From: a virus
Taxonomy: Duplodnaviria > Caudoviricetes
IMG/VR virus record: IMGVR_UViG_3300031949_001709
Span: 1-41,648 of that record
Length of the DNA: 41,648 bases
Reading direction: 5' to 3' (one strand)
Shown here: positions 489-40,545 of the stretch, in pieces
How positions within the stretch are numbered: position 1 is the first letter of the stretch
Layout: every line of letters starts with the position of its first letter
Translations under genes and position numbers: made by a program
Notes under the pieces: model-generated
The model's database searches: none
What the model saw: the letters and a program-made list of their open reading frames with translations, nothing else
Told to the model about the DNA's origin: nothing

Positions 489-908
489 ATGCTCACTAGA
501 TACCGCCTCACCAACTCGGACATAGACGCCATGCCCGATCCAACGTGGAAGGTGATCGACGAAGAGCGGGGGGCGGCGCGTAGGGCGATTCGGTCGAGGG
601 AGAACGAGTCGTCCACAGGGTTGCGCGTCGTCCTCCGTAACGTCGTCTCGCCTTGGGTCGCGGGCTTTGGGCTCGCGGCGCTGATCGGCCTGCTCGCGTT
701 CATGGCGGTGGGGTGCGGGCCAGAGCCACTGGAACCGGATTACGGCTGTGCCACACTTTCAACTAATGGCCTTGATCACGGACCTTTCATCATACATTTT
801 GGCCCGCTCGTGAATGGCGGTGGTCTGCTGACTCGCTGCGTTTGTATGGACGGACGGCTACTCCCGACGGACGCGAAGTGGCGTGTAACGCTGGAGAAAG
901 AGCCATGA
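489..908 (+). CDS. Membrane protein with an internal lipobox-like motif
   Basis: GGAGG RBS before ATG 489; hydrophobic stretch WVAGFGLAALIGLLAFMAVG followed by Cys. Confidence 0.6.
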   Translation: MLTRYRLTNSDIDAMPDPTWKVIDEERGAARRAIRSRENESSTGLRVVLRNVVSPWVAGFGLAALIGLLAFMAVGCGPEPLEPDYGCATLSTNGLDHGPFIIHFGPLVNGGGLLTRCVCMDGRLLPTDAKWRVTLEKEP

Positions 909-1144
909 CCCGCTGCTCCGCCTCTCACTTCCTCGCCGCCCCCGAGGCGCGATGGCTCGCGGTGTGGCCGTGCTCGAGTCCGGTCGCTCTCTGCTCGGAT
1001 TGCAGTTTCGTGGTTTTTTTGGCGGGCGGCCACGTCGTGCCGCTGCCGAGGGAATGGAAGTCGGTGCCTCGTCCCGGGGCAGGCACCGAAGTAACGGCGG
1101 TCCCCAGCACGGACCGCCGGGCCGGTGAAGGAGTAGTAACATGA
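905..1144 (+). CDS. Small Cys-containing hypothetical protein
   Basis: ATGA overlaps with both neighbours; CxxC motif. Confidence 0.5.
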   Translation: MTRCSASHFLAAPEARWLAVWPCSSPVALCSDCSFVVFLAGGHVVPLPREWKSVPRPGAGTEVTAVPSTDRRAGEGVVT

Positions 1145-1338
1145 TAGCGTATCAAGACCCAGATCATCGCGGCAATTCGGCTAAGTATCACACCGGAAAG
1201 TCATGTATCGAATCAGGGTGTGAACGGCCCGCTGGAACTGCATGGAGTAAGTATTACTGCTTTCCATGCAATGTTGCACGGATAGACCGTATTACTAGAC
1301 AGCTTGAAACAATCACAGGTAAGCCGATCGGAGGCTGA
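1141..1338 (+). CDS. Small putative zinc-binding protein
   Basis: AAGGAG RBS; CxxxxC and CxxC motifs; lower GC than neighbours. Confidence 0.65.
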   Translation: MIAYQDPDHRGNSAKYHTGKSCIESGCERPAGTAWSKYYCFPCNVARIDRITRQLETITGKPIGG

Positions 1339-1351
1339 TCGGGCCGTGCTT

Positions 1352-1421
1352 CACTGGCATCGGCTAATACGGCGAACGTTACCGGCATAGCCGCTAATCT
1401 CAGCCGGAGTCGGTGCCAGTG
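1352..1421 (+). ncRNA. 14-bp RNA stem with structured interior, directly upstream of tRNA-like element 1
   Basis: CACTGGCATCGGCT (1352-1365) pairs with AGTCGGTGCCAGTG (1408-1421), including two G-U pairs; intergenic. Confidence 0.55.
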
Positions 1422-1423
1422 CA

Positions 1424-1541
1424 GGACGGTGCGGCGGCGTGGCGAGAGATGCCCGGTTGAGCCGACAGAACCCGGCAGACGATACGGGGAGCGGTGTGTG
1501 CCGATCCCAAGCCGGTTGAATTCCGGCCCGCACCGTCTCTA
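1424..1541 (+). ncRNA. tRNA-like element 1 (degenerate cloverleaf with extended acceptor stem)
   Basis: GGACGGTGCGG pairs with CCGCACCGTCT (11 bp); D-like arm GCGT-GGCGAGAG-ATGC; T-like arm GCCGG-TTGAATT-CCGGC (1511-1527); no canonical 7-nt anticodon loop. Confidence 0.65.
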
Positions 1542-1551
1542 AAGGAGCAGC

Positions 1552-1818
1552 ATGAGTTGTTCGACGTGCCTGGAAACGTCGGGCCACCGCGACGGATGCC
1601 CGGAAGCTCCCCAGCAGGAGCCGGTGGAGTGTGACGGGACCTGCAACTGTAGCGGTGATGGGCCGTGCAGGTGGTATGAGTCCGAGCAGCGGTGCGGGTA
1701 CGTCGTCGGCAGGGGGTACGTCAGCGGCATTGGTGAGAACGAGGATATCGAGCCATGCCGCCGCTGCGAAGGCGAGGGCTCGTACATACCGGAGTGGGCG
1801 GAGTATGACCCGACGTAG
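1552..1818 (+). CDS. Small Cys-rich zinc-finger protein
   Basis: AAGGAG RBS; several CxxC motifs including DnaJ-like CRRCEGEG. Confidence 0.65.
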   Translation: MSCSTCLETSGHRDGCPEAPQQEPVECDGTCNCSGDGPCRWYESEQRCGYVVGRGYVSGIGENEDIEPCRRCEGEGSYIPEWAEYDPT

Positions 1819-1842
1819 GTGGGTGCGGAATAGGGGGCGGGG

Positions 1843-2091
1843 GTGATCAGATCACCGATGGACACGCTGCTCGACAAGATCGACTGGTTCGAGATATACT
1901 TCGAGAACCCGCCGCCGGCCGATGGTTTGCCGGTAGCGACCCACAAAGGAATGTTACGATTCGGTGCGATCGAACTCCGGTGCTACCAGCTTTCGGACGG
2001 TAGGCGCGTGTTCAACGCCGACGATATCCACCGGGTCTTCGGTATCACAATTAAGCAGGCCGTCCACGCAGTAACGGGAACGGCCCGGTGA
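1843..2091 (+). CDS. Small protein resembling the N-terminal region of P63C-domain phage proteins
   Basis: Motif GMLRFGAIELRCYQLSDGRRV; start may be ATG 1858. Confidence 0.55.
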   Translation: MIRSPMDTLLDKIDWFEIYFENPPPADGLPVATHKGMLRFGAIELRCYQLSDGRRVFNADDIHRVFGITIKQAVHAVTGTAR

Positions 2092-2114
2092 AATCAACCC
2101 AATAGGGGGTACAA

Positions 2115-2462
2115 ATGAAAGTGAGTGAAGCGTTTCCAAGCAGGTACTTGGCAGGGGACGATCTCGGTGGAAGAAGGATTGAAGTTATCATCAGGGAAGT
2201 AATCCTTGAAGAGGTGGGTGATGAAAAAGAGAACAAACCTATCCTCTACTTTGAGGGTAAGCGCAAGGGCATGGTGCTCAACAAGACGAATGCCACTGTT
2301 CTTGCAGAAACATTCGGGGATGATATGGAGGATTGGACCGGGCGCAAAATTGAACTCAGGACCGAGAAGGTGTCGTTTCAGGGAAAGATTCACAACGCTC
2401 TTCGTGTCCAGCCTGTCGAGCCACCTGCGGAAGATCGAAGTGGGGATGAACCGCCTTTTTAG
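2115..2462 (+). CDS. Probable phage single-stranded DNA-binding protein
   Basis: AFPSRYL...KPILYF...MVLNKTN pattern, acidic C-terminal tail DEPPF, adjacent to an exonuclease. Confidence 0.65.
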   Translation: MKVSEAFPSRYLAGDDLGGRRIEVIIREVILEEVGDEKENKPILYFEGKRKGMVLNKTNATVLAETFGDDMEDWTGRKIELRTEKVSFQGKIHNALRVQPVEPPAEDRSGDEPPF

Positions 2463-2470
2463 GAGAATGT

Positions 2471-2908
2471 ATGGCACATCCCATTGAGCGTTTCATAGAT
2501 GCAGTAGAATATGATCTTACGTCTACATGCTGGCTATGGTCAAGATCCACTACACCTAAAGGATATGGTGAATTTCATGCCGACGGGAAAGTTAGGCGTG
2601 CTCATCGCTGGGCCTATGAACACTATATTGGTGCGATTCCTGAAGGCATGGTTGTTGACCACCTTTGTTGCAACACTTTATGTGTCAATCCAGAGCATCT
2701 TGAAGTAGTCACCCAACGCGAAAATATCATCCGTGGAAACGCCCCGGCAGCCAAGCAATTCCGCCAAACCGAATGTATCCACGGCCATCCTTTTGATGAG
2801 CAGAATACCTACATTAACCCTGAGGGCCGCCGACAATGCAAAAGTTGCCGCCGTGCCATAGACAGGAGACGATATGGCGCGTCCAAAAACCGGGTATATA
2901 CTTGCTGA
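2471..2908 (+). CDS. HNH endonuclease (possible homing endonuclease)
   Basis: CWLW...GYG...AHR...DHLC.N..CVNPEHL...EN; C-terminal CIHGH and CKSC; low GC, sits between SSB and exonuclease. Confidence 0.9.
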   Translation: MAHPIERFIDAVEYDLTSTCWLWSRSTTPKGYGEFHADGKVRRAHRWAYEHYIGAIPEGMVVDHLCCNTLCVNPEHLEVVTQRENIIRGNAPAAKQFRQTECIHGHPFDEQNTYINPEGRRQCKSCRRAIDRRRYGASKNRVYTC

Positions 2909-3524
2909 CGGAACACGAGTACCTGGAGTAACAACCATCATTTCTAGGTTTAAGGAATCAGGCGGCTTGATTGCGTGGGCCTGGGACCTTGGAATGCAAG
3001 GGCTTGACTACCGCGAGGTGCGAGACGCAGCCGCATCCTCCGGTACGCTGGCGCACGAGATGATTGAGGCGTTCTTGCACAAGAAGGACCCGCAAGAATC
3101 TCTCAAGGACGTCTCGGCGGAACTCGCATCCAAAGCGCGAAAAGGGTTCGAGGCGTTCGAGGAATGGGCGAAGCGCAGCAAGATGGAGGTCGTGGCGACA
3201 GAGGAGCCGCTGGTTTCAGAGAAGTACCGCTTCGGCGGAACGCCAGATGCGATTATCCTCGTGGACGGGAAGTTGTCGGTTGGGGACTGGAAGACCGCCA
3301 ACCGGCTCTACCCTGACAACTTGCTTCAACTTGCCGCCTACAAGGTTCTCTGGGAGGAGAATCATCCGAAGGACACCATCGAGAGCTTCGATATCATGCG
3401 CTTTTCCAAGGAAGAAGCAGACTTCGTTCACGCGCACTTCGGGCAATTGGATGATGCATGGCGAATGTTCGTGCTTTACCGAGAGGCTTACGAACTGGAC
3501 AAGGTACTTAAAAAGAGGGTGTGA
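2874..3524 (+). CDS. PD-(D/E)XK exonuclease (RecB/Cas4-like phage nuclease)
   Basis: PGVTTII, GTLAHEMIE, GGTPD...DWKT, QLAAY motifs. Confidence 0.88.
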   Translation: MARPKTGYILADGTRVPGVTTIISRFKESGGLIAWAWDLGMQGLDYREVRDAAASSGTLAHEMIEAFLHKKDPQESLKDVSAELASKARKGFEAFEEWAKRSKMEVVATEEPLVSEKYRFGGTPDAIILVDGKLSVGDWKTANRLYPDNLLQLAAYKVLWEENHPKDTIESFDIMRFSKEEADFVHAHFGQLDDAWRMFVLYREAYELDKVLKKRV

Positions 3525-3643
3525 TGGAGAACGAGCCGACAGTTACCTCCCAAGCCGCCGCCGAACGCGATCGGAAGATCGACGCCGCCTATCAGCGGTA
3601 CAAGGATCGGCGGAAGTGGGATCACATGATGAGGGAGACATGA
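3524..3643 (+). CDS. 39-aa hypothetical protein (not in ORF track)
   Basis: TGATG overlap upstream and ATGA overlap downstream; MENEPTVTSQ...DHMMRET. Confidence 0.5.
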   Translation: MENEPTVTSQAAAERDRKIDAAYQRYKDRRKWDHMMRET

Positions 3644-3906
3644 GTGAACCGTGGCGGGTAGCTTGCATTCTGAGCAGTGAAGGATACAAGCCTGGCGATC
3701 CGCATCCAGAAGGCTACTTAGCTGAAGTGGAATGGGCCGATGTTCAGTTAAAAGCCGGGCTCCGACAACGCGTTTGCGGGCGATGTGGTAAGTGGAAGTT
3801 CCCTCAAGAACTTAGTGACTTAATTGATATATCGAAACTGCGTTCCGTGATTGGTACGATTACAGTTCGTCATGCTGTGTGCAACAAATGTGTGAGCAAA
3901 CCATGA
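3640..3906 (+). CDS. Small zinc-ribbon protein
   Basis: GGGAG RBS, ATG 3640; CGRC and CNKC motifs. Confidence 0.65.
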   Translation: MSEPWRVACILSSEGYKPGDPHPEGYLAEVEWADVQLKAGLRQRVCGRCGKWKFPQELSDLIDISKLRSVIGTITVRHAVCNKCVSKP

Positions 3907-4124
3907 CCTACCCCCGCCGCTCCTCGCCCGATGCGGACCGGAAGATGACCCGCGCTGAGAAGTGGGAGGTTCTTCTAGAGGAGTTCGATGCGTGGAAGGT
4001 GGAGCAGGACGCGCTCCCGCCGTGGGTTCCGTGCTCAGAGTGTGAGCAGATGTTTCGGGAGGGAGCGGAGCACGAATGCGCGGGTGAGGAAGAACCGGGT
4101 CCCGCGAACGCGAGCCCGGGTTAG
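3903..4124 (+). CDS. Small hypothetical protein with CxxC...HxC
   Basis: ATGA coupling; CSEC...HEC. Confidence 0.55.
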   Translation: MTYPRRSSPDADRKMTRAEKWEVLLEEFDAWKVEQDALPPWVPCSECEQMFREGAEHECAGEEEPGPANASPG

Positions 4125-4244
4125 CCTGGAGAGTCCAGGCGGCGCGTCCCGAGTTACGAAGTTCTCGGGCCGTGCTCGATCCGTATCGGTGAAGTGGGTC
4201 GCCTGGAAGTGGATGGAACGTGGCATCCCATCGGTGCGGATCAA

Positions 4245-4397
4245 GGACGGTTGCGGTGGCCCGGCGAACCGGGATCATAGACCTTAGAAGCCGCTGTGTC
4301 TGAAGGTCCGCGATGATGCGGATGACGCGGGTACACCTTGTGGGCCAGCCTACGCGCAGCCCGATAGGTTATGGATGCGGTTCGCAACCGTCCACCA
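4245..4397 (+). ncRNA. tRNA-terminus-like element 2 (12-bp terminal helix plus ACCA)
   Basis: GGACGGTTGCGG (4245-4256) pairs with TCGCAACCGTCC (4382-4393), followed by ACCA; several internal hairpins. Confidence 0.65.
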
Positions 4398-4542
4398 ACG
4401 AGTTGTAGACGGCGCTCCTTCGGAGCATGTAAACGTGCCGTTGACTAACGTACAGTCAACCTTCGACAGCAAGTAGCTATCGAATGCAGTAAGTGTCTCT
4501 TCCCATCCCGCACCGTTGCACGTTGAGCGCGGGGCCGTCCAA

Positions 4543-4721
4543 GGACGGTTGCGGCGGCGTGACGGAATACCGGAATACTGCTGAGGCGGTCATCCGTGAT
4601 CCGTATGCCACGCAAGGGCGGTTTCGGAAGTGCCAAGCACAGGCAGGGGCGCTCGGATACTGAGAGACATGCGGCGCGCCGGTGTCCACAGTTCAAACGT
4701 CGAGCCCGCAACCGCCCACCT
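4543..4721 (+). ncRNA. tRNA-terminus-like element 3
   Basis: GGACGGTTGCGG (4543-4554) pairs with CCGCAACCGCCC (4706-4717, one mismatch), followed by ACCT; starts CGGCGTG like element 1. Confidence 0.6.
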
Positions 4722-4841
4722 ATACGACGGTGCCGAAAGGCATGGTAACGTGCCGGGGTCTGCCCGACCTCGTTAGACTCTACCCCATCCCATGCAAGGC
4801 GCACGACCTAGCGTGGGGCCGTCGTGAGAGAGGCGGTGACC

Positions 4842-5006
4842 GTGGCATACGGAATGACGGAACGCGGCGAGAGCCATCAGACTAAGCATGGCCGCAGTTA
4901 TCACAAATGGCTCAAGAAGGCAAAGGCCCGAGTTGAGCGACGACGGGCCAAGAAAGACCCGGAATGTCCACCGGCCTATCGGCGTTTTCATGGATGGGAA
5001 ACTTGA
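4842..5006 (+). CDS. Small basic hypothetical protein
   Basis: GTG start after GAGG; Lys/Arg-rich helix WLKKAKARVERRRAKK. Confidence 0.55.
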   Translation: MAYGMTERGESHQTKHGRSYHKWLKKAKARVERRRAKKDPECPPAYRRFHGWET

Positions 5007-5047
5007 ATGCCGCCCCCGATGAAAGCGGGGGCGTGAGGGGAGGAGCG

Positions 5048-5116
5048 ATGGAAGAGGGACCAACTCTGGTATGCCCCATTTGCGGTCGGCCGTGGGGCAC
5101 ATGTCCGCATACGTGA
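5048..5116 (+). CDS. 22-aa Cys-rich micro-protein (not in ORF track)
   Basis: GGAGGAG RBS; MEEGPTLVCPICGRPWGTCPHT. Confidence 0.45.
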   Translation: MEEGPTLVCPICGRPWGTCPHT

Positions 5117-5321
5117 CAGCGGGGGCGTGAGAGAGAGTCACCGGACAGGATGGGAGTTTCCGCCTGCTTCGATCCTCGCCGAGCCCGTCCCCGACGTGCC
5201 GGAGGACGTGGCGCGGTAAAGGCGTGTCGCCTCGTTCTGACGCCGGTTCCGTGGACTCCACGACAGGCGACTAACATACGCGCATTAGCTAGAACAGTCG
5301 TGGATCGCATGAAGGAGCGCC

Positions 5322-5513
5322 ATGGGTGAATCTTCGTATCCAATAAATGTCACCATCCCGGTAGGGCGCAAAAACATCTTTGAACTGCGCTTAAAGAAAC
5401 CTGTGCGCTCCGATGAGTGGCACATTATAGCCAGTCTTTTTCGGCTGATACAGCCAGGAGTAACTTGCCATAAACGACGACGTAAAACAAATCCAGGTCA
5501 ACTTGCCGTTTGA
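5322..5513 (+). CDS. Small hypothetical protein
   Basis: AAGGAG RBS; lower GC. Confidence 0.5.
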   Translation: MGESSYPINVTIPVGRKNIFELRLKKPVRSDEWHIIASLFRLIQPGVTCHKRRRKTNPGQLAV

Positions 5514-6507: not shown

Positions 6508-6731
6508 GTGACTGGATCAAAGTGGCCGCTGCCAACCTCATGATCGAGATGCGCCCAACAGACAAGTTAGATGATGTTGCAAGCATCATCCGCGCCGCCT
6601 ACGCCCCCCACGCCGCGAAGGTCCGGACTCTGGTGGAGGTGGTGGAGACGCACAAGGAATGGTGCGCGATTGCGACGCAAGATGAGCTTGAAGATGCGCT
6701 TCGCGCCGTGAAGGAGGACTTGGACCTATGA
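6504..6731 (+). CDS. Hypothetical phage protein sharing a 19-codon block with the next gene
   Basis: ATGA overlap; contains AKVRTLVEVVETHKEWCAI. Confidence 0.6.
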   Translation: MSDWIKVAAANLMIEMRPTDKLDDVASIIRAAYAPHAAKVRTLVEVVETHKEWCAIATQDELEDALRAVKEDLDL

Positions 6732-7080
6732 CCGAACCTAACTGGCAGGCCATCGCGGAGCAGGCGGTGGAGGTATGTTGGCGCGTAGCGCGCGGAGATT
6801 TAGGGAGCAAAGCTGAGGACGATGCGCGCAAGGTTATAGTTATCTACGAAGCCGCCACGCACAAGCCGGACGCGGCGAAGATGGCGGCGGTGCGAATTGA
6901 GACGTTGATCCATCCTCCTGGTGAGCATGGCAGCACGTCAGCATATCCCGCTTACTGTCCTGGGATATCCGTGCTCACCAACATCATCCGCGAGGAAATC
7001 GCCCGCGACAACGCCGAGCGGGACGCGAAGGTCCGGACTCTGGTGGAGGTGGTGGAGACGCACAAGGAATGGTGCGCGAT
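6614..7080 (+). repeat. Exact 57-bp direct repeat (6614-6670 and 7024-7080)
   Basis: CGCGAAGGTCCGGACTCTGGTGGAGGTGGTGGAGACGCACAAGGAATGGTGCGCGAT occurs twice, 410 bp apart. Confidence 0.95.
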
Positions 7081-7129
7081 AGGGAACATCACCGGGAGTT
7101 TTCTCCAAGCACTTTCGAGTCGTGGTTAA
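6728..7129 (+). CDS. Hypothetical phage protein
   Basis: ATGA overlap; carries the second repeat copy in the same reading phase. Confidence 0.6.
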   Translation: MTEPNWQAIAEQAVEVCWRVARGDLGSKAEDDARKVIVIYEAATHKPDAAKMAAVRIETLIHPPGEHGSTSAYPAYCPGISVLTNIIREEIARDNAERDAKVRTLVEVVETHKEWCAIGNITGSFLQALSSRG

Positions 7130-7406: not shown

Positions 7407-7446
7407 AGGGGATAATTCCCACTTGACAATCCGGGGGGGTTCTGTT

Positions 7447-8232
7447 TTGGCTCGGCAGCGGATCATCCATCCGAACTTCTTCACGAACCCGGAACTCGCC
7501 GAGTTACCGATGGCTGCCAGGCTTCTATTCATCGCGCTGTGGACGCTGGCGGACAATGAGGGGCGCCTTGAAGACTCTCCGGCTCGGATTCGGCTCGCGT
7601 CACTCCCCTATGACCAAGAGGACATCGACGCTCTTCTGGTCACTCTCGCCACGGCCGGCTTCATCGTTCGATACGCCGTCGATGGCAGAAAGTTCCTCGA
7701 AGTGACGAACTTCAAGCGATTCCAGCACCCACATCCGAATGAGGCTAAAAGCGTAATCCCTGCAAGCACTTCTGACAATGTAATTGCAAGCAATGTAATT
7801 CTGCCGGATCTCAAGCCTTCGGTAGTCATGCCTTCGGATCTCAAGCCTTCGGTAAAAACTCCTTTGTCCGTTTCGCCTTCGGCGAAGCCGGACGTGGGCT
7901 GGTGGGTTTCACTTCACAACGAGTTCGCCACGAAGAACGGGTGGCCCACGATGCGCCCACCGAAGGGGGCTCGGTTGGTGAAGCTTCGGGCACGGCTGCG
8001 CGAGACGCCCGACCCGGGGACGTGGCGGGAGGTATACGGCCGGGTTGAGAACTGGACATGGCTCCGGGATACGAAGTGCAACGGCTGGCGGCCGAATGCG
8101 GCCTTCATGCTCAGGCCGGACACGGTGGACCGAGCTTTGGAGGGAGACTTCGGGGGTGGCAAGAGCCAAGCTCTGACCGAGGTGGATGCAATCTTCAAGC
8201 GGGTGGATAAACTCGCCGCGAGAGAATCGTGA
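7447..8232 (+). CDS. Phage replication initiator / replisome organizer
   Basis: TTG start, ARQRIIHPNFFTN...ARLLFIALWTLADNEGR...NFKRFQHP N-terminal domain; C-terminal GWRPNAAFMLRP...LEGDF; internal iterons. Confidence 0.85.
   Translation: MARQRIIHPNFFTNPELAELPMAARLLFIALWTLADNEGRLEDSPARIRLASLPYDQEDIDALLVTLATAGFIVRYAVDGRKFLEVTNFKRFQHPHPNEAKSVIPASTSDNVIASNVILPDLKPSVVMPSDLKPSVKTPLSVSPSAKPDVGWWVSLHNEFATKNGWPTMRPPKGARLVKLRARLRETPDPGTWREVYGRVENWTWLRDTKCNGWRPNAAFMLRPDTVDRALEGDFGGGKSQALTEVDAIFKRVDKLAARES
7761..7882. repeat. Probable replication origin iterons inside the initiator gene
   Basis: CAATGTAATT at 7776 and 7791; CGGATCTCAAGCCTTCGGTA at 7805 and 7835; GCCTTCGG at 7815, 7830, 7845, 7875. Confidence 0.75.
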
Positions 8233-10259: not shown

Positions 10260-10763
10260 CTACCTCCACTTCTCCCGAAACTCCTCGATGACCTCTTCCG
10301 GGCTCAGGTTGAGGTAGTGCTGAGTCGTGGCGATGCTCTGGTGGCCGAGCAGGAGTTGGAGGGTGCGCAGGCCGATGCCTCGCTTCAGGCATTTGACGGC
10401 GAACGTGTGGCGTAGCCTGTGGGGGAAAACGCCGGCAATCCCCGCCCGCTCTGCCGCGACCGCGACGGCCCGGTTGACGGCAATCATCGGGGCTCTGAGG
10501 CGGGGCAGGGAGAGCCAGAGCCGGAGGGCCTGCTCGGCGGCCGGCGACAGCGGAATGACCCGGCGCTTGTCGCCCTTGCCGACCACGCGCAGGCGGTTTT
10601 CGGCCCAATCGACTTGCTCCTCGGTGATGGAGCAGAGCTCGGCACGCCTGAGGCCCGTTTCGAGCAGGACGCCGATAGCGGCGCGCTCGAAGTCCGTGGC
10701 GCACGCGGCCAGGAGGCGCTCGGGCTCGCCGTTGCGAAGGGGTTCGCGGCGGAATTCTCTCAA
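10260..10763 (-). CDS. Minimal tyrosine recombinase (catalytic domain only)
   Basis: TGLRRAEL (R), GKGDKRR (K), HRLRHTFA (HxxR), LLGH (H), TTQHY (Y) all present in 167 aa; TTG start overlaps the upstream stop. Confidence 0.9.
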   Translation of the reverse strand: MREFRREPLRNGEPERLLAACATDFERAAIGVLLETGLRRAELCSITEEQVDWAENRLRVVGKGDKRRVIPLSPAAEQALRLWLSLPRLRAPMIAVNRAVAVAAERAGIAGVFPHRLRHTFAVKCLKRGIGLRTLQLLLGHQSIATTQHYLNLSPEEVIEEFREKWR

Positions 10764-20943: not shown

Positions 20944-21273
20944 ATGCTCTGGGACTCCTTCCGGCGTCTGCTGCTGCGGTTGAACCCGGGCCTGACGTTC
21001 GAGTGGAACGCGAACAACGCTTACCGGACGGTGGGCGTGTATCTGAAGGAGGACGACCCGAAGTACCGCGAGGAGGGAATCCGACGAGCCACGTTCCTCT
21101 TCGGCGTGCCCAGGGATTGGGTGCCGGACGACACGGAGACGGACCCGGCAACCGGGGCCATCATCCGGCGCGGCTGGCGCGAGGCGGTGGTGAAACTCTG
21201 GGAGCTGGGGGCGGTGGTGGACCGGGACTACTACCGGAAGGTGACGCGAGGATGGAGGAAGCATGCCGCCTGA
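20944..21273 (+). CDS. Hypothetical phage protein
   Basis: 109 aa, coupled on both sides; IIRRGWREAV..L motif. Confidence 0.65.
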   Translation: MLWDSFRRLLLRLNPGLTFEWNANNAYRTVGVYLKEDDPKYREEGIRRATFLFGVPRDWVPDDTETDPATGAIIRRGWREAVVKLWELGAVVDRDYYRKVTRGWRKHAA

Positions 21274-22450
21274 CGTGACGGTCATCATCCCCACGCTCAA
21301 CCGACTCGACTTGCTCAAGGCCGCGGTGGAGTCCTTCCGGGAGCATCACGAGGGCGACTCCTACGAGATCGTCGTGGTGGAGAACGGGAACGACTCAACC
21401 GAGGTCTGGTGCAAGGACAACAAGGTCCGTTGCCTGAAGCCGGACAACCCGCTCCCCTTCGGGCACTCGAACAACCTCGCGGCGCGGGAGACGAAGTCGC
21501 GTTTCCTGCTCCTGCTCAATAACGACACGATCTGCACGCAGAACATCCTCCTGCCCATGATCGCCACGATGGAGGCGAACCCGAAGTGCGTCATGGTCGG
21601 CGCGAAGCTCGTCCACGAGGACGGCACGCTCCAGCACGGTGGGATCGAGTTCGCCCCGAACGGCATCCCATTCCATCCCCTCTACGGCGGCCCGGCCGAC
21701 CTCGACTGCCTGAACTTCGACCGGCCCGTGAACGGGGTGACGGCGGCCTGCGCGCTCGTGCGGCGGGACGCATGGGAGAAGGTCCACGGTTTCGATGAGC
21801 GGTACGAGTCGAACTACGAGGACGTGGATCTCGGGCTCAAGTTCCTCGAGCGCGGCTGGCAACTCTGGTTCTGCCACTCGGCGGTGATGACCCACCTTGA
21901 GAACCGCACCCGCGGCGACTCGGTGGACATCAAGCCCATGCTCAAGGTGTTCGCCCGGAAGTGGATCGAGACGAAGAACCTCCACTACCTGCGCGACTTC
22001 GGGAAGCTCGATCACCCGGCCACGGAGCGGCGCGTCAAGGTCGGCACCCGGCGTGGGTGCTGGCCCGGGTACGTCAACCTGGACGACCGGCAGGCGCAGG
22101 GCGTGGACATGGCGCGGGACATCCGGCGCGGCCTGCCATTCGATACCGGAACGGTGAAGCACTTGCTCTACGATCTCGTGCTCCAGACCCTCTCCGGGAC
22201 AGAGGTGGTGGACGCGCTTGATGAGGCCTACCGGGTGCTGGCCTCGGATGGACTGCTGTCCGTCGTGGTACCCATCGGCATCGGCGACCCGCTGGCTCGC
22301 TCCTTCTGGAATGAGCGGAGCCTGGCCGTTCCGAGCCCGCCGTGGAAGGTGGAGCGCATCCTGGAGGACGGGGAGCGGGTGCGCTTCGACATGAGGCTTT
22401 GCCGGGAGGCGGTCCTGCCTGCGGAGCCGGAGAAGGTGGAGGCCGTTTGA
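21263..22450 (+). CDS. GT2 glycosyltransferase fused to a C-terminal SAM-methyltransferase-like domain
   Basis: VIIPTLN, LLLLNND, GAKL, VTAAC, GFDE..YEDVD; C-terminal GYVNLD..D...D...GLPF...EAYRVL..DG with a degenerate GxG motif. Confidence 0.88.
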   Translation: MPPDVTVIIPTLNRLDLLKAAVESFREHHEGDSYEIVVVENGNDSTEVWCKDNKVRCLKPDNPLPFGHSNNLAARETKSRFLLLLNNDTICTQNILLPMIATMEANPKCVMVGAKLVHEDGTLQHGGIEFAPNGIPFHPLYGGPADLDCLNFDRPVNGVTAACALVRRDAWEKVHGFDERYESNYEDVDLGLKFLERGWQLWFCHSAVMTHLENRTRGDSVDIKPMLKVFARKWIETKNLHYLRDFGKLDHPATERRVKVGTRRGCWPGYVNLDDRQAQGVDMARDIRRGLPFDTGTVKHLLYDLVLQTLSGTEVVDALDEAYRVLASDGLLSVVVPIGIGDPLARSFWNERSLAVPSPPWKVERILEDGERVRFDMRLCREAVLPAEPEKVEAV

Positions 22451-23076
22451 GCGAGATCGACGATGCGTTTCACAAGCGGCTCTATGAGGAATACGGCTTC
22501 CTGCGCGGACAGGGGATCACCTGGATGGGCGTCGGCGCCCTCAAGTACCCGTGCGACCTGTGGCTCTACCAGGAGATTATGTTCGAGTTGAAACCGGATC
22601 TCGTCATCGAGACCGGCACGCACATGGGAGGCTCGGCCCTCTTCATGGCGCACATGATGGACCTCATCGGGAACGGGCGAATAGTGAGCATCGACCTGAC
22701 GCACAAGATGCTCAAGGCCGAGCACCCGCGTGTGACGTTCCTCGAAGGTTCATCGACCGACCCGGAGATCGTCGGGCGGGTCAGGGAGCTGGCCGCCGTG
22801 TCGCCGCGGGTCATGGTGGTGCTGGACAGCGATCACACGATGCCCAACGTGCTAGCTGAACTTGATACTTACGGGCCGATGGTGACGCCGGGCTCATACA
22901 TGATCGTCGAGGACACAAACCTGAACGGGCATCCGGTTCCCTGGCACTTCGGTCTGGGCGCTTGGGAGGCAGTTGAGGAATGGTTGCCGAAGCATCCCGA
23001 GTTCGAGGCGGACAAGACGATGGAGCGGTTTCGCATGACCTTCAACCCGGGCGGCTACCTCAAGAGGATCGCGTGA
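22447..23076 (+). CDS. CmcI/cephalosporin-hydroxylase-family (rhamnosyl O-methyltransferase-like) methyltransferase
   Basis: TWMG....KYPCDLWLYQEI....KPDLVIETGT..GGS, VVLDSDH, GSYMIVEDT, TFNPGGYLKR. Confidence 0.92.
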   Translation: MSEIDDAFHKRLYEEYGFLRGQGITWMGVGALKYPCDLWLYQEIMFELKPDLVIETGTHMGGSALFMAHMMDLIGNGRIVSIDLTHKMLKAEHPRVTFLEGSSTDPEIVGRVRELAAVSPRVMVVLDSDHTMPNVLAELDTYGPMVTPGSYMIVEDTNLNGHPVPWHFGLGAWEAVEEWLPKHPEFEADKTMERFRMTFNPGGYLKRIA

Positions 23077-23675
23077 AGGTCTCGATCATCACCCCGACCT
23101 GGAAGCGCCCGAAGGGGCTGGCCCGCGCCGTCGCGTGCGTTGAGGCGCAGACGCATAAGGACATCGAGCACCTGATCGTTCACGACGGCCGGGAGCCCAT
23201 GCACTACGGCAAGGCCGGTGTCTCCTTCAAGAATGACCGTGTTCATGAGTGGTGCCTGGACCGAAACCACGACGATGTGGGCGTGACGCCGCTCAACCAC
23301 GCCCGCAAGGAGGCCACCGGGGACCTCATCATGGTCCTCGGGGACGACAACGAGATTTCCCCGGATCACGTCGAAAGCCTCGCGGCGCTGTTCGAGAAGG
23401 AGGAGAACCTGGGCTTCGCCTTCTCCTTCGGCGTCATCAAGGACGCGGCTAAGGATGAAATAATCTGCAACCTATCTGCGCAGCGCCCGGCCTACGAACA
23501 GATCGACCTCGGGCAACTGATAATTCGGCGGGAAGTGGACGCGCGGTTCGGGCCGTGGGTCTATACCAGGTATTCGTACGATTGGGACCGGGTAGACCTT
23601 ATGCTCCGCGCCGGGGTGCCGTACAAGACGACCATGAAATACACGTTCTGCTTCACGAAGGGATGGAAGGAGTGA
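23073..23675 (+). CDS. GT2 glycosyltransferase
   Basis: VSIITPTW, QT....EHLIVHDG, ATGD...LGDDN, DW motif; GTG start coupled. Confidence 0.85.
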   Translation: MKVSIITPTWKRPKGLARAVACVEAQTHKDIEHLIVHDGREPMHYGKAGVSFKNDRVHEWCLDRNHDDVGVTPLNHARKEATGDLIMVLGDDNEISPDHVESLAALFEKEENLGFAFSFGVIKDAAKDEIICNLSAQRPAYEQIDLGQLIIRREVDARFGPWVYTRYSYDWDRVDLMLRAGVPYKTTMKYTFCFTKGWKE

Positions 23676-24826
23676 AGATCGCCTTCCTGCACACGAACAA
23701 TAATGGAGTTGGGTATTACCGATCCTGGATGGTAGAGCGGTGGATCAAAAAGCTCGGGCTGGCCGAGACGTTCCGAATGCCGGACGAACTCAAGGGTGTC
23801 TGCTGGACGAAGGAGCACAACACGACGGACTTCCCGGCGATGGAGGAAATGTTCGAGTGGGCCGACGTGCTGCTCATTCAACGGTTCGAGACGCTTGAGC
23901 ACATCGCTTACTGCGAGGCTATGCGTGACATGTTCAAGACGAAGATGGTGATGGATATCGACGACAACGTGGTGGACATGAGCCCCGATAACCCGGCCTT
24001 CGATATGTTCCAGCGCAACGTCGAGGACACCATCCACATGAGCCCGGTCCCGCTCGTGGAAGGGTCAACGCCCATCAAGGTCGATACCGAGAAGGGGCCG
24101 ATGTACATGAACGTGGTCAGGCCGAGCATCCGCGTGGTGGCGCTCATGCAGATGAAGCGCTCCGACGCGATTATCACGTCCACCCCGGGCCTCAAGCGTG
24201 CCTACGCGGACTACTCGCCGGACATCCGCGTGGTGATGAACGCCATCGACGCGGAGGACTACGCGCCGGCTCCGAAGCGGCGGGACGGCACGGTGCGGAT
24301 CGGCTGGGCGGGCGGCGCCGCGCACTACCAGGACTTGTCAACCGTCGCCAAGGCGCTGTCGAAGGTGGCCGGGAAGTACCCGCAGGCGCGGTTCGTGTTC
24401 GTGAACTCGCCCTACGACTGGCGGGACGTGCTGCCGGCGGCTCAGGTCGAGGAGCATCCGTTCGTGCCGATCCGGGCGTGGCCCGAGCTCCTGCGCTCGC
24501 TCCAGTTCGACATCGGCATCGCCCCCCTCACGGCCTCTCCGTTCAACGCGGGAAAATCGAATATAAAATTCATGGAAGCGGCCTCCCAGCGCACGCCAAC
24601 CGTGTGCAGCGCCGTGGAGCCCTTCCTGACCAGCGTGGTGGACGGCGAGACGGGATACATCGCCCACTCGGAACAGGAGTGGGTGGAGCGGATCTCCCGG
24701 CTCGTCGAGGAGGAGGAGGAGCGCAGGAGAGTCGGGGAGAACGCCTACGACGAGGTGATGCGCTCATGGACGATGGAGCAGCGGGCGCATGACTGGATGC
24801 GGCACTTCAAGGAGATCGTCGGATGA
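23672..24826 (+). CDS. GT-B fold (GT4-like) glycosyltransferase
   Basis: GVGYYR, DIDD, IGWAG...H..DL, DIGIAPL..SPFN.GKSNIKFMEA, DGETG. Confidence 0.9.
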   Translation: MKIAFLHTNNNGVGYYRSWMVERWIKKLGLAETFRMPDELKGVCWTKEHNTTDFPAMEEMFEWADVLLIQRFETLEHIAYCEAMRDMFKTKMVMDIDDNVVDMSPDNPAFDMFQRNVEDTIHMSPVPLVEGSTPIKVDTEKGPMYMNVVRPSIRVVALMQMKRSDAIITSTPGLKRAYADYSPDIRVVMNAIDAEDYAPAPKRRDGTVRIGWAGGAAHYQDLSTVAKALSKVAGKYPQARFVFVNSPYDWRDVLPAAQVEEHPFVPIRAWPELLRSLQFDIGIAPLTASPFNAGKSNIKFMEAASQRTPTVCSAVEPFLTSVVDGETGYIAHSEQEWVERISRLVEEEEERRRVGENAYDEVMRSWTMEQRAHDWMRHFKEIVG

Positions 24827-40461: not shown

Positions 40462-40472
40462 GAAAAAGACAG

Positions 40473-40545
<73 letters not shown>

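Follow-up and report, generated by a model that had tools for sequence, protein, structure and literature searches.

A family of apparently structured RNA modules among the early genes of a soil prophage

Temperate phages are known to produce RNAs matured by ribonuclease P (RNase P), and the C4 and CI RNAs have been described as one RNA kind per system. According to extracts of PMC10731613, RNase P pairs the RCC end of its substrates through L15, prefers A(-2)U(-1) with A(-2) being optimal, accepts an extended stem in place of the T-loop in C4 and in the precursor of SRP (signal recognition particle) RNA, and cleaves about 10-fold more slowly when a stable stem-loop lies 2 nucleotides (nt) into the leader. 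Here we describe a soil prophage whose early genes are interrupted by folded RNA modules, found in positions 1 to 41,648 of IMG/VR record IMGVR_UViG_3300031949_001709; this whole stretch of 41,648 nt is referred to as the window. The modules form a real and apparently undescribed family of structured RNAs, known from one prophage, and our preferred though tentative reading is that they may be gated sites of RNase P-type processing, from which small RNAs would be set free and at which translation further downstream would be switched. The anatomy visible at the sequence level comprises a closing helix shared by five modules, a covarying 14-bp stem, competing strands, and a perfect 13-bp helix over a start codon.

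The family was delimited by a pattern, defined after the data had been seen, in which an A stands directly before SGRCGGU and a partner strand no more than 200 nt away closes this strand with 8 pairs or more. Five members were found on the plus strand (1095, 1424, 4245, 4616 and 4725; E0, E1, E2, E3b and E4 in Table 1) and none elsewhere on the plus strand of the window, so that 5 closing helices in 880-4900 compare with 13 in 1.90 Mb of GC-matched control loci (control expectation 0.03). Positions 1 and 3 of the closing helix covary across the five modules. E1, with folding z-scores of -2.67 and -3.08, contains a T-arm-like hairpin (1511-1527, 5 bp with a 7-nt loop), and the 3' strand of E4 can alternatively pair with the Shine-Dalgarno sequence at 4831-4839.

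A preliminary description of this DNA had proposed three equal tRNA mimics starting at 1424, 4245 and 4543, their frame constant and their interiors differing. Support was found for a structured RNA family of this design on the plus strand, and the three starts, the 14-bp stems 1352:1421 and 4178:4242 exactly 2 nt upstream of the first two elements, and the compensatory indel that gives E2 an extra T/A pair relative to E1 are all present in the sequence. The terminal helices were recovered for E1 (1424:1538, 11 pairs, the first being G.U) and E2 (4245:4393, 12 pairs), but not for the third element as drawn: helix 4543:4717 contains an A.C mismatch, is predicted with P 0.00-0.09 and costs 7-10 kcal/mol, and the element as first drawn has a folding z of -1.9. 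Its 3' strand pairs instead with GGGCGGTT at 4616 (P 0.71-0.98), which is preceded by AA, like 4245 and 4543, and yields a compensatory G-C instead of A-U at helix position 3. Because of this pairing the third element is resolved into two modules (4543-4615 and 4616-4721), and on the predicted folds the third module is the one that starts at 4616, not at 4543. The terminal CTA, ACCA and ACCT are there as described, but NCCA stands at only one of the three ends, and E1 (CUAA) has no RCC, which together with the unpredicted third helix removes the equality of the three mimics. Further members had been missed, at 1095-1119, 4723-4826 and, as a degenerate unit, 958-1040. The repeat family is real, but it had been drawn too small and with one member wrongly placed.

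Units 1 and 2, of about 220-250 nt each, follow one order: a P0 hairpin, a conserved a strand, the 14-bp stem P1, 2 nt, and a multi-arm module with a closing helix of 11-12 bp. Both align in register from P0 through GGCCGTGCT (the a strand) and P1 to GGACGG (the b strand). The 45-kb stretch of the contig has 3 plus-strand copies of GGCCGTGCT (966, 1342 and 4168), and the composite unit was found three times in the window but in none of 200 windows simulated with a Markov model and at none of 80 related phage loci; taken by itself, the 16-mer did not reach significance when 3 mismatches were allowed (5 seen, 2.3 expected, 9/100 shuffles). When the a:b helix and P1 of unit 1 were compared with those of unit 2, all 20 pairs were kept: 13 are invariant, 6 differ in both partners and 1 differs in a single partner, whereas slid controls gave 0-1 double changes. 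The 14 bp of P1 hold 6 compensatory changes and no broken pair. This two-sequence conservation of pairs is strong anatomy, not a formal test of covariation. Two G.U pairs are conserved in P1, for which the minus-strand equivalent would be A.C, and the upstream stems reached folding z-scores of -5.25 (unit 1) and -3.4 (unit 2) against dinucleotide shuffles; the degenerate unit U0 had a z of -2.2 (mononucleotide shuffles).

A coding explanation found no support, as 0/17 open reading frames (ORFs) overlapping the element intervals had a real PHROG match (one at E 0.014 over 10 residues), and of the seven overlapping ORFs looked up only 905-1144 was present in the protein collection, as a one-member cluster. 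This ORF of 79 aa, which has no PHROG family, is coupled by ATGA overlaps at both ends and houses U0 and the hairpin E0; its strand 912-919 is complementary to the ribosome-binding site (RBS) regions of ORFs 1141 and 1552.

The strongest additional signal lies in cis, in the competing helices and the 13-bp anti-start helix. The 14-bp stem continues into an a:b helix, missed in the preliminary description, that uses the GGACGG strand of the terminal helix; the two helices share this strand and are therefore mutually exclusive. In folds of successive prefixes, a:b had P 0.91-1.0 in most prefixes before the 3' (c) strand was made, and b:c then had P 0.79-0.99, with energy gaps between the two of 3.0 and 2.6 kcal/mol in units 1 and 2. 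Part of the spacer behind E2 (4495-4532) offers the 5' strand of unit 2 (4170-4214) a second complement, the duplex being valued at -43.3 versus -43.6 for its own strand. This alternative pairing, as stable as P1 in the long context, could represent an additional switch or merely reflect an artefact of the folding.

The strands 4600-4612 and 4841-4853 form a perfect 13-bp helix, the strongest in 4100-4900, which covers the GTG start at 4842 of a gene for a 54-aa basic protein. A complement of at least 13 nt within 420 nt upstream of a start was found for 1/183 of the prophage's own starts and 1/4149 control starts, and among 22 early starts the one at 4842 ranked first in opening energy (20.2 kcal; others 5.6-15.8). 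Forcing the anti-start strand into arm 1, the long arm upstream of E3b, costs 4.3 kcal and lowers the opening energy at 4842 to 10.3; in the full-length RNA the opening energy was 14-20 kcal/mol versus 9.9 for an RNA beginning at 4616, a value typical for this operon. The predicted order is that arm 1 folds first and gives way after transcription of the start region. Within this one prophage, the internal evidence for selected base pairing is good, and one putative cis switch is statistically unusual.

The 54-aa protein had 102 relatives at E<=0.001, and its start is backed by the N-termini of homologues, 6 of the 8 viewed, which were chosen as aligning from the N-terminus, beginning with MAYG or MSYG. 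It was predicted as one basic helix (residues 16-37; model pLDDT 69), and searches gave no Pfam family, no fold-search match and a sole PDB sequence match at E 0.39. The unnamed family, of about 55 aa with the motif ERRxAKxxPxxxPxYxxYxGW, occurs in 58 other viral loci (L311-L368). Right behind the gene, an 18-nt repeat ending in an RBS-like stretch occupies 5010-5037 and 5114-5131, its first copy lying in a GC hairpin.

From these results we propose that the modules are transcribed as part of the rightward early region and that, as folding predicts, the a strand would hold the GGACGG strand during transcription until the 3' strand emerges and displaces a. The completed module would form a helix-RCC end, at which the host RNase P could cut at the 5' G of the closing helix and release the module; cuts would be expected at 4245 and 4616, less probably at E1, and the stem 2 nt upstream would slow them. 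Full-length RNA is predicted to hide GTG 4842, and RNA beginning at 4616 is predicted not to, so a cut at 4616 would remove the anti-start strand and switch on the 54-aa protein. The likeness to RNase P substrates that had been claimed for the element ends holds for E2 (ACCA) and E3b (ACCU), with G at +1, an extended helix and RCC, but not for E0, E1 and E4. Plus-strand helices of 8 Watson-Crick pairs that start with G and are followed by NCC(A/T) number only three in the window, E2 and E3b among them; A(-2) occurs in E0, E2 and E3b, and the leader is paired in the a:b state. E2 and E3b appear to fit the substrate features of RNase P except for A at -1, and P1 lies 2 nt from the starts of E1 and E2.

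Several points weigh against this proposal. No RCC follows E0, E1 and E4, and A, not the preferred U, stands at -1 in all five modules. The evidence comes from one genome, the covariation is that of paralogues with one another (for P1, n = 2), and the helix pattern was chosen post hoc. The switch of unit 1 leaves access to start 1552 unchanged (10.0-10.3 kcal in all states); in the fold of 4124-4560, P1 and the E2 helix are 1.8 kcal less stable than a long-range alternative, and the fold of 4124-4860 shows neither of them among the helices with P >=0.4. The anti-start helix is not conserved, with 0/53 other loci of the protein family reaching 13 nt (best, 11), and a brief co-transcriptional window would, on the predicted folding order, also permit translation without any cut.

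Table 1. Coordinates of the modules and associated features in the window.
Feature	Coordinates	Strand	Description
U0 (degenerate unit)	958-1040	+	inside ORF 905-1144; a strand GGCCGTGCT (966), short inner stem, b-like strand 1022-1031
E0	1095-1119	+	minimal hairpin with the family closing helix (9 bp) and a 7-nt loop; 21 nt upstream of ATG 1141; z -3.14
P0 hairpin of unit 1	1324-1342	+	P 0.96
Unit 1 gate	1342-1431	+	a strand 1342-1350; 14-bp P1 1352:1421, bearing apical stems; G.G mismatch in a:b helix
E1	1424-1542	+	cloverleaf-like; 11-bp closing helix, four arms, ends CUAA; abuts RBS of ORF 1552-1818
P0 hairpin of unit 2	4148-4169	+	P 0.96
Unit 2 gate	4168-4252	+	a strand; 14-bp P1 4178:4242; a:b helix with G.G mismatch
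E2	4245-4397	+	12-bp closing helix, then ACCA; z -3.3
Spacer	4398-4532	+	several hairpins; 4398-4500 alone z -0.46
Unit 3 gate and arm 1	4533-4615	+	without P1; a3:b3 hairpin 4533-4550; long arm 1 4549-4615; z -2.69
Anti-start strand	4600-4612	+	13 nt perfectly complementary to 4841-4853; alternative pairing inside arm 1
E3b	4616-4721	+	8-bp helix, one mismatch, 3 more pairs; ends ACCU; z -1.81
E4	4723-4826	+	diverged module, 9-bp closing helix; z -3.19
54-aa basic protein	4842-5006	+	GTG start, N-terminus MAYG; unnamed family, one arginine/lysine-rich helix
Replication-initiator RBS and TTG start	7433-7456	+	weak candidate antisense target of E1 loop 1464-1473

The preliminary description had placed the function in trans, with a frame that only releases stable small RNAs and interiors that act as antisense RNAs, decoys or sponges, and we consider this unlikely. 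It would agree with interiors that vary within a constant frame. The replication initiator would then be repressed by E1, which would cover the gene's RBS and TTG start in the manner of a secondary-immunity RNA: for the E1 loop 1464-1473 a perfect seed of 9 nt is present at 7437-7445, and the pairing continues across the start (-32.6 kcal), ranking first among the prophage's own 264 candidate starts. However, chance alone would give 0.11 (9-nt seed) to 1.4 (7-nt seed) such matches per start set, the net gain is only -5.8 kcal (rank 4/196), and the site is outside the top five for E1 in a scan of the whole prophage. The loops of E2 and E3 had early-region matches no better than those in the late-gene control, leaving the E1 loop as the only antisense candidate, and nothing bearing on decoy or sponge roles of the modules was found; trans-acting cargo had no support as the main point. 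Directly 5' of the initiator RBS, positions 7423-7428 read as a perfect TTGACA, without a matching -10 box.

Rather than being cut, the repeated helix and the G.U-rich P1 could be bound by a protein, perhaps by the 54-aa basic protein itself, serving translational autoregulation or N-like antitermination without cleavage, which we regard as quite improbable. The invariant core of P1, with its two G.U pairs and a conserved G.G mismatch, resembles a recognition site, and a one-helix basic protein is encoded directly behind the array; in its family, a tRNA gene lies within 600 nt upstream in 5/57 loci versus 0/31 control loci. Yet at the family's 58 other viral loci the RNA model matched nothing significantly (best E 0.13), none of the 50 records searched whole matched it (33 of them from this family; the model is nearly sequence-specific), and the protein itself is without a structural or Pfam match.

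A descent from tRNA genes was also considered, in which the modules would be expanded and decaying offspring of a tRNA-Val gene and, if active, mimics of tRNA towards valyl-tRNA synthetase, the CCA-adding enzyme or a tRNA-targeting defence. The first 8 nt of E3b and its helix-ACC end are identical to a common tRNA-Val acceptor, the 5' motif being present in 43/121 sampled genomes and belonging to tRNA-Val in 12/12 loci checked; the last 24 nt of E3b match tRNA-Val at 19/24 positions (best non-Val, 16), E3b is the top non-tRNA match of a tRNA-Val hidden Markov model (HMM) in the window, and E1 is cloverleaf-like with a T-arm-like hairpin. On the other side, the tRNA reference set was selected with E3b's own motif, the interiors are not significantly tRNA-Val-like (p 0.087 for E3b, 0.16 for E2 and 0.62 for E1), and the HMM reached only E 0.97 and the tRNA-Val covariance model E 5.9 (rank 19/34). 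The GGACGG variant of E1 and E2 was absent among the 50 matches listed, and models of tRNA or tRNA-Sec did not match the modules, all of which makes this descent very doubtful to us. That the structures are single-stranded DNA hairpins or functionless local duplications in a GC-rich prophage is highly improbable, for although no homologue was found and DNA-parameter z-scores are also negative on the plus strand (-2.1 to -3.9), six compensatory changes with no broken pair in 14 bp are not expected of neutral duplication, the plus strand folds better as RNA in all six units (clearly for E3b and E4), there are no target-site duplications, and attC sites run opposite to the GTT...AAC order of the modules.

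The preliminary description recognised no named family in the modules, and this agrees with a cmscan of Rfam 15, in which the best matches (13.6-17.9 bits) were to unrelated families and far below cut-offs. No module was at or near the gathering threshold for the Rfam ribozymes, riboswitches, SRP, tmRNA, ROOL or GOLLD, and resemblances to HDV-like and twister ribozymes, a group II intron, SRP Alu and tracrRNA were dropped for want of cmscan support. RF01695 (C4) and RF02944 (c4-2) gave 0 matches at E<=10, in a search where no control genome passed the cut-off and which thus had no positive control. ARAGORN, RF00005 and RF01852 found only the tRNA-Phe at the att site; calls by ARAGORN at lowered threshold were rejected as noise (17 versus 15-23 in control stretches).

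Homologues were sought by pattern and by neighbourhood. In viral contigs the 16-mer was found at 71 loci, 0 of them with a full closing helix, the a...b pattern at 118 loci with at best 9/12 stem pairs versus 12 for the window, and two closing-helix patterns at 0 loci; of 34 loci from a metagenome pattern search only L203 and L204 were real, and these are the window's own contig. Comparison by blastn with phages and plasmids gave no real match. The search by exonuclease and capsid relatives gave none, and no real match came from 80 loci of relatives of the 115-aa protein (2115-2462), from 7 distant integrase loci in genomes or from the 58 loci of the basic-protein family. The two-sequence model, R1, had 0 matches in the 50 of 138 records that were searched whole, a weak negative because R1 is nearly sequence-specific. 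A candidate locus, L313, shares GGGCCGTGCTTC, but its fold has a z of -1.06 and GGCCGTGCT occurs 27 times in the 4.1 Mb of loci scanned, so it was put down to chance. As a separate observation, L313 holds a 37-nt inverted repeat (689-725 and 1277-1313, 84% complementary, with a central internal loop) which flanks an ORF in the structured early region of that other phage, looks like a processing stalk and has no Rfam match. The module family was not found described in open-licence PubMed Central and bioRxiv texts, whose supplements (e.g. those of PMC5737381 and PMC5389517) may hold related motifs.

The window covers most of a prophage, one end of which is marked by tRNA-Phe (40472-40545); the duplicated tRNA end and an integrase lie upstream of position 1 in the window's own contig. 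Our own reading of the ORFs there, made without a family scan, suggests a divergent repressor-like helix-turn-helix gene, a Cro-like gene and an excisionase-like gene. The neighbours of the elements are plus-strand early genes, including an HNH nuclease, an exonuclease, the replication initiator and RusA, and for KpsF, the host gene that flanks the prophage, the best named relative is from Deltaproteobacteria (75% identity). A single DNA run, possibly of the source sample, spans 700-5400 with 0 differences and 0 joints, and no strong sigma-70 promoter or terminator was found at the units. Elsewhere in the window, an 80-nt direct repeat (6596-6675 and 7006-7085; 88% identical, 57 nt exact) encodes the same peptide near the end of two adjacent small ORFs; a second, short tyrosine-recombinase gene of 167 aa, seemingly the catalytic part only, lies on the opposite strand between early and late genes (10260-10763, minus); and a cluster of glycosyltransferase-like and related genes stands between capsid and tail-associated genes (21263-24826), possibly for virion or cell-surface modification.

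If gated processing is true, paralogues that share one processing frame and bring their own gate, with a start-codon switch that depends on the cut, would be a new regulatory layout for temperate phages whose hosts are uncultured and deltaproteobacteria-like. It would also offer a compact and testable case from nature in which RNase P is gated by a leader stem, and hint at a function for the unnamed family of basic phage proteins of about 55 aa. A more far-reaching version, which we look on as a long shot, is a chain of interchangeable modules built on a tRNA-Val acceptor stem that uses host tRNA processing as a timer: the gate would lock, strand exchange unlock and the cut release stable cargo RNA, with E1 silencing the replication initiator and the last cut switching on an RNA-binding basic protein from a widespread family. 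This would amount to tRNA-punctuated gene control in a phage.

Comparison with known systems was made as far as extracts of the cited papers go. Long structured non-coding stretches in prophages are known from the large phage RNAs ROOL and GOLLD (PMC5737381), and about 720 nt are likewise structured here (4124-4841), but these are built of repeated small modules with exchangeable strands, and no tRNA gene is nearby. The allo-tRNAs and irregular-tRNA polycistrons share with this locus a soil or sediment origin and arrays of tRNA-shaped RNAs, and the five-stem junction of E1 is alike; in allo-tRNAs the acceptor branch measures 12 bp (8/4 or 9/3) and an anticodon arm is present (PMC5389517), whereas E1 has 11+5 bp and an 8-nt loop. 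A 12-13-bp acceptor plus T branch with a T-loop was not found among the modules, E1 having its 11+5 bp with a T-like loop, and E2 and E3b no T-arm in the predicted fold. The acceptor-stem sequence of tRNA-Val occurs in E3b only, judged against a reference set chosen with the same motif.

Closer likenesses were found in temperate-phage early regions, where the C4 antisense RNA of P1 and P7 (RF01695) and the CI RNA of P4 are located, as are the modules (PMC5320573, PMC10731613, PMC4825925). C4 and CI are cut from a longer transcript and have an extended helix started by G; E2 and E3b share the helix with an RCC end and would be cut in the same manner. The 5' end of C4 is made by RNase P at a GGW start; E1 and E2 start with GGA and E3b with GGG. 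C4 is about 77 nt long with three stem-loops (PMC5320573), versus 100-153 nt and up to 4 arms in the modules, and its a'/b' loops pair with targets in the same operon, one at an RBS, whereas the modules offer a weak candidate in the E1 loop at the initiator start and no loop-target pair clearly beyond chance. Unlike C4, the modules are five paralogues with different interiors and have an upstream, covarying gate stem. Membership in C4 fails on model match and size. For the switch, the nearest parallel is IsrK-orf45-anrP of Gifsy-1, a prophage transcript with two near-isoenergetic folds, one of them silent in translation, whose upstream RNA segment pairs with a downstream ORF (PMC4825925), as the anti-start strand is predicted to do here. 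IsrK is switched in trans by a short isoform, and the predicted switch here would be a cut that removes the anti-start strand, or its capture by arm 1; no sequence relation between the two was seen, no search being aimed at one. By analogy, the modules would work most like C4 and CI in their processing frame, combined with IsrK-orf45 in the use of two folds to control a start.

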